Shown here: piece by piece, positions 32,010-58,685 of the stretch | Layout of the letters: each line of letters starts with the position of its first letter | How positions within the stretch are numbered: position 1 is the first letter of the stretch | Source: Eledone cirrhosa | Taxonomy: Eukaryota | Reading direction: 5' to 3' | Assembly: GCA_964016885.1 (NCBI GenBank) | Contig: OZ024753.1 | Location: forward strand, 46,066,001-46,130,000 | Length of the DNA: 64,000 nt | Notes under the pieces: generated by a model | The model's input: the letters and a program-made list of their open reading frames with translations, nothing else | What the model was told of the DNA's origin: nothing | Database searches by the model: none | Program-made: the position numbers and the translations under genes

Positions 32010-32304
32010 GTACATATATAGATATCTATATATATATATATATATATATGTATACGTACATATATAGATATCTATATATATATATATATATATACATACG
32101 TACATACATAGATATATATATATAGGGCCAAAAAAGACATTATGAAGTAAAAAGAAACCGCATTAAACATGGCAGAATCTATTCTAGCGTGTTCTACATG
32201 GTATGTCGTCCACCGGATTTCAATTAAAATTTCACAATGGTGTCACCCTAATCATTTCAACCATATTGTTCCACAGCACACACCTACCACCCTCCTTCAC
32301 TTTC

Positions 32305-32347
32305 ATCATATCATCCTCATCATCCTCATCATCATCATCATCATCAC

Positions 32348-32406
<59 letters not shown>

Positions 32407-33527
32407 CAATCATCACCATCATCATTACGATCCTCGTCGACGTCGTCTTAGTGTTTGGCAACAACGTCGTCGTTATCGTTACCGCCAGCCTCATGTTTCC
32501 ACATCTTTGTCATCACTATTACCATCACATGTCCCCCACCCCACCACCACCATTCCCGTCACCCTCCTCTTCATCAACGCCGTCTTCTTCCTTGTCAGCA
32601 CCATTCCCATCATCGATCGAACCATCCCTATCATCACCAGCAACATAACCATAATCATTTCCATTAAAACCTGAATCAACACCACCATCATCATCATCAT
32701 CATCATAGTCATCATAACTCTAACCCTAACCCTAAACCTCATCATCATCGCCACCACCACCACCTCCATCAACACCACCACCCTCATCATCACCACCATC
32801 ATCACCATCACCACCACCACCACCTCCATCAACACCGCCATCATCATCATCATCGCCACCACCACTACCTCCATCAACACCACCATCATCATCACCACCA
32901 CCACCATCATCATCACCACCTCCATCAACACCACCGCCATCACCACCACCACCACCACCTCCATCAACACCACCATCATCACCATCACCACCACCACCAC
33001 CTCCATCAACACCACCATCATCATCATCACCACCACCACTACCTCCATCAACACCACCACCATCACCACCACCACCTCCATCAACACCACCACCACCACC
33101 TCCATCAACACCACCACCACCACCTCCATCAACACCACCATCACCATCATCACGATCACCACCACCATCATCATCACCACCACCACCTCCATCAACACCA
33201 CCACCATCACCATCATCACCACCACCACCACCATCAACACCACCACCATCACCATCAATATCCCAATCACCATCTATTTAAGAGAAGACATTCTAATTAG
33301 GATCAGATCTCTGATCAACTTCACAAATACTGCAACTACTAAAACTAATATTACTACTACCACTACATCTAACACACCACCACCACTACTACCTTCTCTA
33401 CCACTACTTCCTTCTCTACCACTACCTCTACCACTATCTGTACCACGACTACCTTCTCTACCACTTCTACTACCATCCTTTCTAACCCCTTTACTGACAC
33501 CACCACCACCACCATTACTACTACTAC

Positions 33528-33559
<32 letters not shown>

Positions 33560-33563
33560 TTAA

Positions 33564-33604
<41 letters not shown>

Positions 33605-34260
33605 TCACTACACCGGGAAATGACACCCACCCCCTCACCATAAACGACATCATTTAATACTAGTTTGATCATTATACCATTCCCTCTTCTTCATAATCTT
33701 GACATTTATCAATACCACCACTACCTTCTCCCCCACTTCAATCAATGTTAGCTCCCCACCACCATCAGTACCTCCACGACTGCCATGACCATCACTACCA
33801 TCCTGACCACCTTCAGTATCACATGACAACCACCACCACAGCAACAATCATCACAACCCATGTCACCACCATAACCACACGACAACCAACACCTACACCA
33901 TCACCAACACCAACACAACCACTACCATCACCATCACCACCATTACCACACGACAACCATCACCACCATAACCACCAATACCATCAACACCACTAACACC
34001 ATCACCATCACCACGATAATCACCATCACCACAACAACCACCAATACTATCACCATCACCATCACCACGACAACCACCAATACCATCAACACCACCAACA
34101 CCATCACCAACACCAACACCAACACAAACACCAACACCAACACCAACACCAACACAGCCACTACCATCACCATCACCACGACAACCACCAATACCATCAA
34201 CACCACCGACACCACCTCCACCACAGGCAGCAGTAGACGACTTCCAAGCCATCCATCACC
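32305..34260. repeat. Compound (CAT)n/(CAC)n/(TAC)n low-complexity block
   Basis: Direct inspection; variable ...acctccatcaacaccacc... units at about 32750-33270. Confidence 0.9.
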
Positions 34261-34369
34261 AACACAATCAATAACATCACTTTCAACATAATTTTCGTCC
34301 AGTACCTTCGTATCGAACACTGACAAAAATCAACACCATCCCCAACACTTACTCCACCATCAGTGCCAC

Positions 34370-34945
34370 CACTACAAGCACCAGAACAACCACAACCACT
34401 ACAACTACCACCACCGTCACCACAACCAATACAACTACCATCACCGTCACCACAACCACTACAGCTACCACCAACATCACTACAACCACTACAACTACCA
34501 CCACCATCACCACAACCACTACAACTACCACTACCATCATCAGAACCACTACAACTACCACCACCACCACCATCACCACAACCACTACAACTACCACCAC
34601 CATCACCACAAATACTACAACTACCACCACCATCACCACAACCAATACAACTACCACCACCATCACCACAACCAATACAACTACCACCACCATCACCACA
34701 ACCAATACAACTACCACCACCATCACCACAACCACTACAACTACCACTACCATCACCACAACCACTACAACTACCACCACCATCACCACAACCACTACAA
34801 CTACCACCACCATCACCACAACCACTACAACTACCACCACCATCACCACAACCACTACAACTACCACCATCATCACCACAACCACTACAACTACCACCAC
34901 CGTCACCACAACCACTACAACTACCACCACCGTCACCACAACCAG
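34370..34945. repeat. 30-bp minisatellite, about 19 copies
   Basis: Unit ctaccaccaccatcaccacaaccactacaa. Confidence 0.92.
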
Positions 34946-34954
34946 GAAAACCAG

Positions 34955-35960
34955 TATAACCAGCAGTGTCACCACCACAACCACCAACCACCATAACCAG
35001 CAGTGTCACCAACACAACCACCAACCACCATAACCAGCAGTGTCACCACCACAACCACCAACCACCATAACCAGCAGTGTCACCAACACAACCACCAACC
35101 ACCATAACCAGCAGTGTCACCACCACAACCACCAACCACCATAACCAGCAGTGTCAGCACCACAACCACCAACCACCATAACCAGCAGTGTCACCACCAC
35201 AACCACCAACCACCATAACCAGCAGTGTCACCACCACAACCACCAACCACCATAACCAGCAGTGTCAGCACCACAACCACCAACCACCATAACCAGCAGT
35301 GTCACCAACACAACCACCAACCACCATAACCAGCAGTGTCACCACCACAACCACCAACCACCATAACCAGCAGTGTCACCAACACAACCACCAACCACCA
35401 TAACCAGCAGTGTCACCACCAAAACCACCAACCACCATAACCAGCAGTGTCACCACCACAACCACCAACCACCATAACCAGCAGTGTCACCACCACAACC
35501 ACCAACCACCATAACCAGCAGTGTCAGCACCACAACCACCAACCACCATAACCAGCAGTGTCACCACCACAACCACCAACCACCATAACCAGCAGTGTCA
35601 CCACCACAACCACCAACCACCATAACCAGCAGTGTCACCACCACAACCACCAACCACCATAACCAGCAGTGTCACCAACACAACCACCAACCACCATAAC
35701 CAACTGTATCACTAACACAACCACCAACCACCATAACCAGCAGTGTCACCAACACAACCACCAACCACCATAACCAGCAGTGTCAGCACCACAACCACCA
35801 ACCACCATAACCAGCAGTGTCACCAACACAACCACCAACCACCATAACCAACTGTATCACTAACACAACCACCAACCACCATAACCAGCAGTGTCACCAC
35901 CACAACCACCAACCACCATACCAGCAGTGTCACCACCACAACCACCAACCACCAACCACC
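34955..35960. repeat. 37-bp minisatellite, about 27 copies
   Basis: Unit ccataaccagcagtgtcacc(a/c)acacaaccaccaacca; the period is not a multiple of 3. Confidence 0.92.
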
Positions 35961-42209: not shown

Positions 42210-42338
42210 CATAGGTGTGTGTGTGTGTGTATACATATGTGTGTGTGTTAGGTAATTCCAAAACAAGGGGAAAAAAGAGTGCTCTATGTATAGAAAAGAG
42301 CTATTTAATTAGAAAGTGAACAACACTAAATATAACTA

Positions 42339-42406
42339 CTCCATTACCAAAGGTTTCTGGATCCCAGACAATATTAATATACGTCTGGATCGTTCGTCAG
42401 ACAGAG
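42339..42406 (-). ncRNA. Type I hammerhead ribozyme (left arm of the palindrome)
   Basis: Minus strand ctctgt-CTGACGA-ac-gatccagac...gtctgggatc-ca-GAAA-CC-ttt-GG-TA-atggag; stems I, II and III pair. Confidence 0.8.
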
Positions 42407-42416
42407 ATGTCATCAT

Positions 42417-42486
42417 CTCTGTCTGACGAACGATCCAGACGTATATATTATTATCGTATGTGATCCAGAAACCTTTGGTAATGGAG
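42417..42486 (+). ncRNA. Type I hammerhead ribozyme (right arm of the palindrome; stem II partly decayed)
   Basis: CTGACGA 42423-42429, GAAA 42468-42471, stem III ACC-ttt-GGT, GUA site ending 42480, stem I ctctgt/atggag. Confidence 0.72.
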
Positions 42487-42513
42487 TAGTTATATTTTGT
42501 GTTGTTCACTTTC

Positions 42514-42559
<46 letters not shown>

Positions 42560-42577
<18 letters not shown>

Positions 42578-43045
42578 ATATTTCTGATACCGTTTAATTG
42601 ATTGAGACTGCCCGTGTATATGAGCCATATGAAGATCTGAGAAATCATTCTGTCATAAGTTAAGACTGTGTTCGTCCGGTGTGTATATGTTGTGTATACT
42701 TGGAATTCTGTGTATATATTAATGGCAGATATGTCGAGTTGCCCTCCAATAGAAATCTTTCTAGTAGAGAGATCCACTATTATTTTAGGAACATGTGTCA
42801 GGTTTTACAATTAAAATTTCTCCTGATTTAAACATACACGATATAACGTCGGTTAGGTTGGTTTGAGTTCCACTTTCAGAGCGACGACACCTTTTCAGTG
42901 TTGATATTGACGTTGAAGGGAAGAATTGTGTGATGGTCAATAGGTATATTTTTAGGAATATTGGTTGGATTTTGCTTTGGATATTTTCTTGTAATCTCCA
43001 AAGCTTTGGATTGTGGTTGGTTTGTACCTTAGAATGGCTTCAGCA
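42560..43045 (-). pseudogene. Decayed Penelope GIY-YIG endonuclease and linker remnant
   Basis: Minus strand fragments KALEITRK...NIP, FKSGEILIVKPDTCS*N, DFY/IG and HRI...IYTPDEH resemble PLE F..G..F.IK..TC.S.N..Y...YIG.T...H...I; oriented toward the HHR-bearing pseudo-LTR at 42249-42409. Confidence 0.45.
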
Positions 43046-43054
43046 GTGTATATA

Positions 43055-43132
43055 CAGGGTGTCCCCAAAACATATATATACACTTCAACACCATGCTTAT
43101 CAAAGTAGGTATACATTTTGGGGGAAGCACTG
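43055..43132. mobile_element. Tiny Tc1/mariner-type MITE
   Basis: TA-cagggtgtccccaaaa ... ttttgggggaagcactg, imperfect TIRs. Confidence 0.5.
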
Positions 43133-43939
43133 TGTATATATATATAACACCTTCAACTTCGCATTTTCATCTTTATTAATATACTCCGTCACCCCTGACA
43201 TTGTGAATATGGCGTTGAGTGCTACAAATGAATTGCATACTTGTATACCGAATATATATATATATATATAAATATACATATATATATATACATATATATA
43301 TATATACAGATGCTGGGTCTAGATTATCCAGTTTAGATCTGATGCAATTAACCCTAATTTAAAATCACTGCGGTATTGTATGTTAATTAATTTGAGTTAA
43401 AGTTGATTTTGTTTTTACAGGCATTTTTAGTTGAGAGGGCGGAGGCCGTAATAATTACTGGTATATATTAAAGTTTAACTAGATAGTCACATTCAGTATT
43501 GCTGAAATGGGTGTGTTCAGTTTGTTGATTATCATAATAGGTGGTGTCTTGTATATATTTCGGATAATGAAGCAGTTTTATAGTTTTCAACATCCATAAT
43601 GAATACCTAACTTCCATTATCTCTTTCTATAATTACGATGTAAACAACTTGTAGTGTCACAGTGAAAGACTGACCTGAATATATCCTAACACTTCAGCAG
43701 ACATTGCTTACCCGAGCTCCTCTACAAGTAAATCTAATTATCGACCCTGAATTCAATGGCATTACATTAAATACCACTTACAGAGAGGAGGGGGAGAGAA
43801 ATATACACACACACGCGCACACATTCAGAAAAACACACACAAACACACATTTTCTTCCCTTTTACACGAAAGTATATTTCTATATATTCTCTTCTGTGCC
43901 TCCTCATCTTTCTAGTACTCCATTTCATGTATTTACATA

Positions 43940-57902: not shown

Positions 57903-57982
57903 TATTGCCTCGTCTGACGAACGAATGAAGTCGTTTATTTCGTATTCGCCTCATTCGGGAAACCTCTGGTAATGAGGTAATA
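57903..57982 (+). ncRNA. Type I hammerhead ribozyme, best-preserved copy
   Basis: Stem I tattgcctcgt/atgaggtaata (11 bp including 2 G-U); CTGACGA 57914-57920; stem II cgaatga/tcattcg; GAAA 57959-57962; stem III ACC-tct-GGT; predicted cleavage after A57971 (GUA). Confidence 0.85.
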
Positions 57983-58085
57983 ATATTGTATTGATTTTAT
58001 ACATTAAATTTTGCTCTGATATTGACATAGAGCACTCTTCATTTCTATGACCTTTTCTGTTTCTAACTGAAATTTCAATACTATG

Positions 58086-58685
<600 letters not shown>

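Follow-up and report, generated by a model that had tools for sequence, protein, structure and literature searches.

The palindrome at 42306-42519 of the window (the whole stretch of 64,000 nt of Eledone cirrhosa DNA that we analyzed) is quite probably the decayed trace of a single Penelope-like element (PLE) insertion that joined two 5'-truncated, hammerhead-bearing ends head to head within a microsatellite. The arms belong to an abundant, dispersed, 5'-truncated repeat family found in AT-rich or microsatellite DNA, and this family is putatively of PLE origin. The inverted architecture of pseudo-LTRs (pLTRs) plus a tail is already published for PLEs. Retrotransposon scars of this sort are many, the same 64 kb holding another example, and the locus itself is likely inert.

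An earlier note on this DNA had described a 214-bp palindrome, and it lies where that note placed it (Table 1). The two arms, 104 nt (left) and 106 nt (right) in length, align over 106 columns (blastn E 4e-86) with five substitutions and one 2-nt indel, and the 28 nt of each arm beside the 4-nt centre are identical. A 271-nt minus-strand RNA of the locus folds at -166 kcal/mol (z = -27.8), a value reached by none of 200 shuffles. The centre continues the left arm as the family does, except at 42411, where the family carries C>T in 592.9 of 646.2 depth (run X1). The full tail claimed for the minus arm was likewise upheld: family homology continues to about 42249-42260, as judged from the loose ends of the family reads, which cover the tail and stop near 42260-42269 ahead of TA-rich loose ends, setting the long 3' end of the family there. 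No target-site duplication was readable when the flanks of the palindrome were inspected.

Table 1. Features at and around the palindrome (positions in the window).
Feature	Positions	Strand	Basis or remark
3' extension ('tail', 57 nt)	42249-42305	-	long arm only; adjoins (TG)/(TA) microsatellite
Left arm (104 nt), a family end truncated on its 5' side	42306-42409	-	blastn, arm alignment, family reads
Type I hammerhead-like motif	42339-42406	-	C3 42400, G12 42357, H17 42345; stem II closing pair not Watson-Crick
Centre, 4 nt	42410-42413		natural upstream continuation of the left arm in the family, except 42411
Right arm, 106 nt, inverted tail-less copy, (TA)n at its end	42414-42519	+	blastn, arm alignment
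Second hammerhead-like motif	42417-42486	+	C3 42423, G12 42468, H17 42480; a change private to this arm (42458) disrupts one pair of stem II
(TA)n run, likely target site	42520-42575		sequence
Decayed stretch proposed as PLE linker/GIY-YIG	42576-43047	-	by-eye likeness to Fig. S2 of PMC8557442
Decayed PLE DKG-like motif (D at 43621)	43540-43640	-	strand of the long arm; outside the coordinates of the earlier note
Third, solo, diverged copy of the arm family	57903-58081	+	blastn 71% over 133 nt, E 7e-07
Second head-to-head inverted pair	58267-58545		arms 58267-58375 and 58434-58545 with 58 nt between them; (TA)n runs on either side

We followed the family in four sequencing runs aligned to 42249-42470 at 80% likeness. 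Run X1 may be the source sample, X21 and X22 bear the same species label as X1, and X4, one of 17 small-share runs, comes from another organism. The family pieces were contigs in X1 (2119) and X4 (259) and raw reads in X21 (1916) and X22 (1874); summed contig depth was not taken as copy number. Family depth drops steeply toward the 5' side, and 30 X1 contigs depart from the family sequence at 42302 and go on as a TA-rich loose end, in the manner of the tail-less arm. In the RAD runs, reads ending at 42307 and 42310 were considered as a second 3' end and rejected, as these ends coincide with an AATT site, presumably the restriction cut of the library. A family pattern found three loci in metagenomes, all in one and the same sequence context and without the upstream core, which we rejected as chance; it gave no match in viral contigs, and two family 13-mers were not found in the supplement of PMC8557442.

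It is highly improbable that the palindrome is an assembly or library fold-back artefact, because the arms differ by real family variants: most of the five substitutions and the indel are genuine variants of the family. Moreover, three runs, which may stem from the source sample, contain 75-79% of the sequence words that make up the 2.4-kb locus. The point in favor of an artefact is that, among the 16 of 2450 family pieces listed, none from the palindrome locus itself spans the centre. Inverted joints recur in other copies of the family: ten join opposite strands, and a further one is a head-to-head skip joint. One X1 contig runs through the centre (42330-42457) but departs from the locus at 15 letters and by 7 gaps, and for this reason it is taken as another palindromic copy. 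Reads of another locus in X21 and X22 also cross the centre, with A at 42413 in 117 of 121 and 126 of 127 reads, few starts and a perfect centre. The other inverted joints are not symmetric, their two 5' ends lying 35-126 nt apart. Three of 22 joint ends fall at 42343-42345, at the predicted cut (p ~0.014, with joint orientation assumed and a small sample). A cluster of joint ends at 42404-42415 was discarded as an edge effect of the reference.

The proposal that the locus carries inverted pseudo-LTRs matches the PLE architecture published in PMC8557442, PMC3846280 and PMC4209133. According to these papers, an inverted 5'-truncated copy stands beside the 5' end of PLEs with a tail at one end only (PMC8557442), palindromes occur at head-to-head junctions, with self-priming proposed (PMC3846280), and dual minimal hammerheads lie 100-700 bp apart on opposite strands (PMC4209133). 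The arms show this organization: an inverted 5'-truncated copy adjoins the 5' end, and the tail is at one end only. The locus shares with the EN+ PLE insertions of PMC3846280 and Fig. 2 of PMC8557442 the head-to-head inverted 5'-truncated copies, the junction palindrome, the extension at one end only, the microsatellite target and the absence of a readable target-site duplication. It differs from them in having no ORF between the repeats and a tail of 57 nt, and in that the link of its family to an RT/EN ORF is putative. Compared with the dual motifs on opposite strands in Schistosoma (PMC4209133), the cores here are only 23 nt apart.

In Poseidon of Anolis carolinensis (PAc; PMC11167929), two reverse transcription start sites define the tail, and each of the two DNA strands is cut and then extended. 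PAc and our locus have in common a pair of 3' ends with the tail between them, and AT-rich targets, whereas PAc is active with an intact ORF and the palindrome here is known from sequence alone. In the proposed insertion, a first reverse transcription would start at the end of the tail and a second about 57 nt inside, and the two cDNAs, likely from two different template RNAs, would be joined at their far ends. Points against a PLE insertion are the tail of 57 nt versus the published 30-40, the absence of G10.1-C11.1, the non-palindromic loop 3, and an adjacent remnant that has no database match and is unlike the upstream sequence of the family. The PAc study predicts a dimer and found the hammerhead not needed for insertion in vitro, and its later steps are unvalidated (PMC11167929). 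Self-priming (PMC3846280) is so far a proposed mechanism for the inverted pLTRs of PLEs, which gives the locus its value as a test case; because the family is abundant and polymorphic and its inverted joints are many, the question whether two arms share a template can be put to an assembly alone.

Each arm had been credited with a full hammerhead core. The core boxes are indeed in both arms; the stem II pairs beside the core are mismatched, and no hammerhead was among the Rfam matches listed. The core C3-U4-G5-A6-N7-G8-A9, G12-A13-A14, A15.1-U16.1 and H17 is present in both arms and in the third copy, with C3-A9, G12-A14, the 15.1-16.1 pair and GUA17 kept in both arms, and N7 alone of the core positions varies across the family (among the 40 of 43 variant rows listed). 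A stem I of 6 bp (two of them G.U) and a stem III of 3 bp can form in both arms, with cleavage predicted after 42345 (minus) and 42480 (plus). The two stem II positions beside the core are A.A and then C.C mismatches in both arms, and A.G and then C-G in the third copy; the G10.1-C11.1 pair thus has no counterpart in any of the three copies in the window. Nor is the pair restored by the majority letters of the family, C for 42393 and A for 42358 on the minus strand. Loop 3 reads UUU or UCU, and the arms lack the palindromic 15.2-16.2 segment plus loop 3 associated with dimer formation. Family variants at 42365 and 42387, which are unphased, would exchange a stem II C-G for U-A, and 42364 is a freely varying bulge in the family, also unphased.

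The G10.1-C11.1 pair is reported as highly conserved in the minimal hammerheads of PLEs, of which single motifs gave no cleavage and dimers low cleavage (PMC4209133). The arms resemble these type I motifs in their core boxes, long stem II, short stem III and unpaired base after A9, and in that most copies are solo and truncated; they differ in lacking G10.1-C11.1 and in a 3-bp stem III with a non-palindromic 3-nt loop (PMC4209133). No hammerhead family appeared among the 150 of 364 Rfam matches listed or among all 13 of a second search, and a third gave none; the matches listed were generic hairpins of the miRNA-model type only. In an isolated arm, the strict hammerhead fold makes up about 3% (left) or 0.5% (right) of the ensemble. 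The mismatched closing of stem II, the non-palindromic loop 3, the low ensemble share and the lack of a hammerhead among the listed Rfam matches are points against hammerhead activity.

The third copy (57903-58081) folds best of the three, as its minimum-energy structure is a hammerhead with a stem I of 11 bp. Comparison of its stem I with that of the arms gave two two-sided compensatory changes and a one-sided one, from two independent sequences only. Because of this fold and the compensatory changes, the motif appears to descend from a structured hammerhead-like RNA. The third copy also has a short hairpin motif of the tail in common with the family. The second inverted pair, 16 kb from the first and with a tail reaching about 58631, belongs to an unrelated minimal-hammerhead-like family, which blastn did not match to the first. 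The core boxes are present in its plus arm together with a self-complementary 15.1-16.1 segment, with the palindromic 15.2-16.2/loop 3 at 58442; in its minus arm, stem I is 8 bp long but position 15.1 is a G. This pair fits the published minimal motif (PMC4209133) better than the arms at 42306-42519. Since it is also hammerhead-like and inverted, the head-to-head arrangement occurs twice in 64 kb. For comparison, 235 hammerhead matches are reported in a squid genome (PMC6962438).

According to the earlier note, read-through RNA could either cleave itself or form a double-stranded hairpin. The folding energies do not bear out such a switch, as the hammerhead fold lies about 88 kcal/mol above the hairpin ensemble on both strands; imposing it on read-through RNA takes 88.4 kcal/mol for the minus strand and 87.9 kcal/mol for the plus strand. 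In RNA from either strand, the sense hammerhead lies 3' of its own complement, and the antisense arm, being 5', is made first. From this order and the energy gap, read-through RNA is predicted to form only the hairpin, of about 105 bp, which would sequester the sense hammerhead and preclude self-cleavage; a free ribozyme would, on the same models, need a transcript start near the centre.

If transcribed, the hairpin is by analogy a plausible ADAR substrate. A transcribed element that self-cleaves or forms double-stranded RNA for ADAR or Dicer with a regulatory role is, in our opinion, very unlikely, notwithstanding the hairpin energy of -166 kcal/mol, the heavy editing of palindromic repeats in frog and the high hyper-editing in octopus (PMC5625713). 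The energy gap stands against it, as do the small share of the hammerhead fold even in lone arms, the mismatched base of stem II and the absence of any sign of conservation. Comparable hairpins are also common in the 64-kb window: a masked self-comparison gave at least nine inverted matches of 100 nt or more, this palindrome included (among 12 of 29 listed). The frog example, a Harbinger repeat of Xenopus tropicalis, is likewise a self-folding repeat of about 200 nt; it differs in being a DNA transposon whose consensus is itself palindromic and whose editing has been demonstrated, the palindrome here being specific to the locus (PMC5625713). Editing or dicing at our locus would be predicted to be incidental, with no host function needed.

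The arms themselves bear on how such insertions arise. What the right arm carries at 42364, 42370 and 42374 also occurs in the family, as variants of 14-53% frequency, the indel between the arms is also split in the family, and one difference is private to each arm (42327 and 42458). Three of the four stem II differences between the arms match listed family variants (p ~0.006, tested on 17 of the 40 listed variant rows, those inside the arm that reach at least 10% in X1, X21 or X22 or differ between the arms). Furthermore, 29 X1 contigs on the stem II of the right arm carry C at 42458, indicating that this stem II type exists elsewhere. Since fold-back of a single cDNA predicts arms identical at birth, the common variants among the stem II differences favor two template molecules. 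We put this at about even chances only, because the variants are unphased and two of the sites are mutation-prone (a CpG site and an indel in an AT run). The same PLE stump could also have formed by self-priming or fold-back of one cDNA, as in the model of Arkhipova et al. 2013, followed by divergence through mutation or gene conversion. This is a substantial possibility, though not the one we would expect to hold. Self-priming is the published reading (PMC3846280), the 4-nt centre is near-symmetric with 28 identical nt beside it, the arms start at nearly the same base, and the other locus with A at 42413 in X21 and X22 has a perfect centre; against it, three of the four stem II differences and the indel segregate in the family, and the other joints are asymmetric.

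More generally, we propose tentatively that the head-to-head palindromes of PLEs arise from two independently reverse-transcribed RNAs, one primed per DNA nick by a dimeric protein, with some templates beginning at the hammerhead cut. If true, the variant-matching arm differences and the three joint ends, among 22, that lie no more than 1 nt from the cut would record two-template integration and in vivo hammerhead processing. A full-text literature search that covered few subscription papers did not find this model. It is somewhat doubtful, but compatible with a PLE insertion scar in all but autonomy, that the family is a non-autonomous hammerhead element, similar to a retrozyme or a SINE, that PLE enzymes mobilize in trans, the neighbouring remnant being a separate insertion of greater age in the same (TA)n tract. 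The 5'-ward drop in depth, which indicates that most copies are short, the far greater decay of the remnant and the derivation of animal retrozymes from PLE pLTRs (bioRxiv 10.64898/2026.07.22.740005) speak for such an element. The animal non-LTR retrozymes of that preprint are likewise short, non-coding and pLTR-related, with a type I hammerhead; they form tandem head-to-tail arrays, whereas the window holds an inverted pair and one solo copy, and copies here are solo or inverted.

The GIY-YIG endonuclease (EN) remnant that the earlier note had placed at 42560-43045 found no backing, with no meaningful match in any protein search and a motif test at the level of shuffles. Pfam gave nothing below E 0.09 in the six frames, and NCBIfam, PDB and word-index protein searches of this heavily frameshifted stretch, none of them run with a PLE-specific EN profile or protein, gave no meaningful match. 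A FusC match (NCBIfam, E 0.019) was dismissed as chance, and the sole phmmer match among 1.84 billion proteins (P0001) was set aside as a repeat artefact, since it owes its score to one stretch (tblastn E 0.076) repeated six times in tandem. The frameshift-tolerant EN motif score was equaled or beaten by 90 of 400 shuffles, and its best place differs from the by-eye site. The likeness of 42576-43047 to a Neptune-type linker plus EN was judged by eye against the published figure, and several frames permit such readings. A regular-expression test with no hits in 100 shuffles was discounted, the pattern having been written after the site was seen, and the A-rich strand skew is unremarkable (101 of 345 windows as skewed).

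The DKG-like motif about 600 nt further upstream has modest support as the best such site of the window; its score of 12 of 14 was attained in 1 of 60 shuffles of the window and in none of 1000 local ones, with residue classes taken from eight published rows and columns chosen after the site was seen. An RT core was not seen in this region, and neither Pfam (three frames) nor PDB gave a match. An old, internally deleted PLE over about 42576-43700 is plausible. The remnant is probably a separate, older insertion than the arms, since it is far more decayed, (TA)n lies between, and its end is unlike the upstream loose ends of the family; the family sequence upstream of 42410 (30-letter loose ends) does not match it. 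The remnant is interrupted at 43050-43133 by a short, MITE-like element, flanked by TA dinucleotides, whose terminal inverted repeats are imperfect.

The window as a whole is rich in microsatellites and SINEs, in keeping with an octopod. Elsewhere in it, a near-perfect palindrome surrounds an (AT)n run at 4396-4499, at the 5' edge of an ORF (4318-4923, plus) that we take to be a C-terminal fragment of a LINE-like RT. Three more stretches, 100-310 nt long, are palindromic in themselves but have no hammerhead box: 13625-13729, 16927-17182 and 5999-6306, the last presumably made of inverted tRNA/SINE-like pieces. Long trinucleotide arrays of the (CAT/CAC/ACT) type with extreme GC skew occupy 32200-35050.
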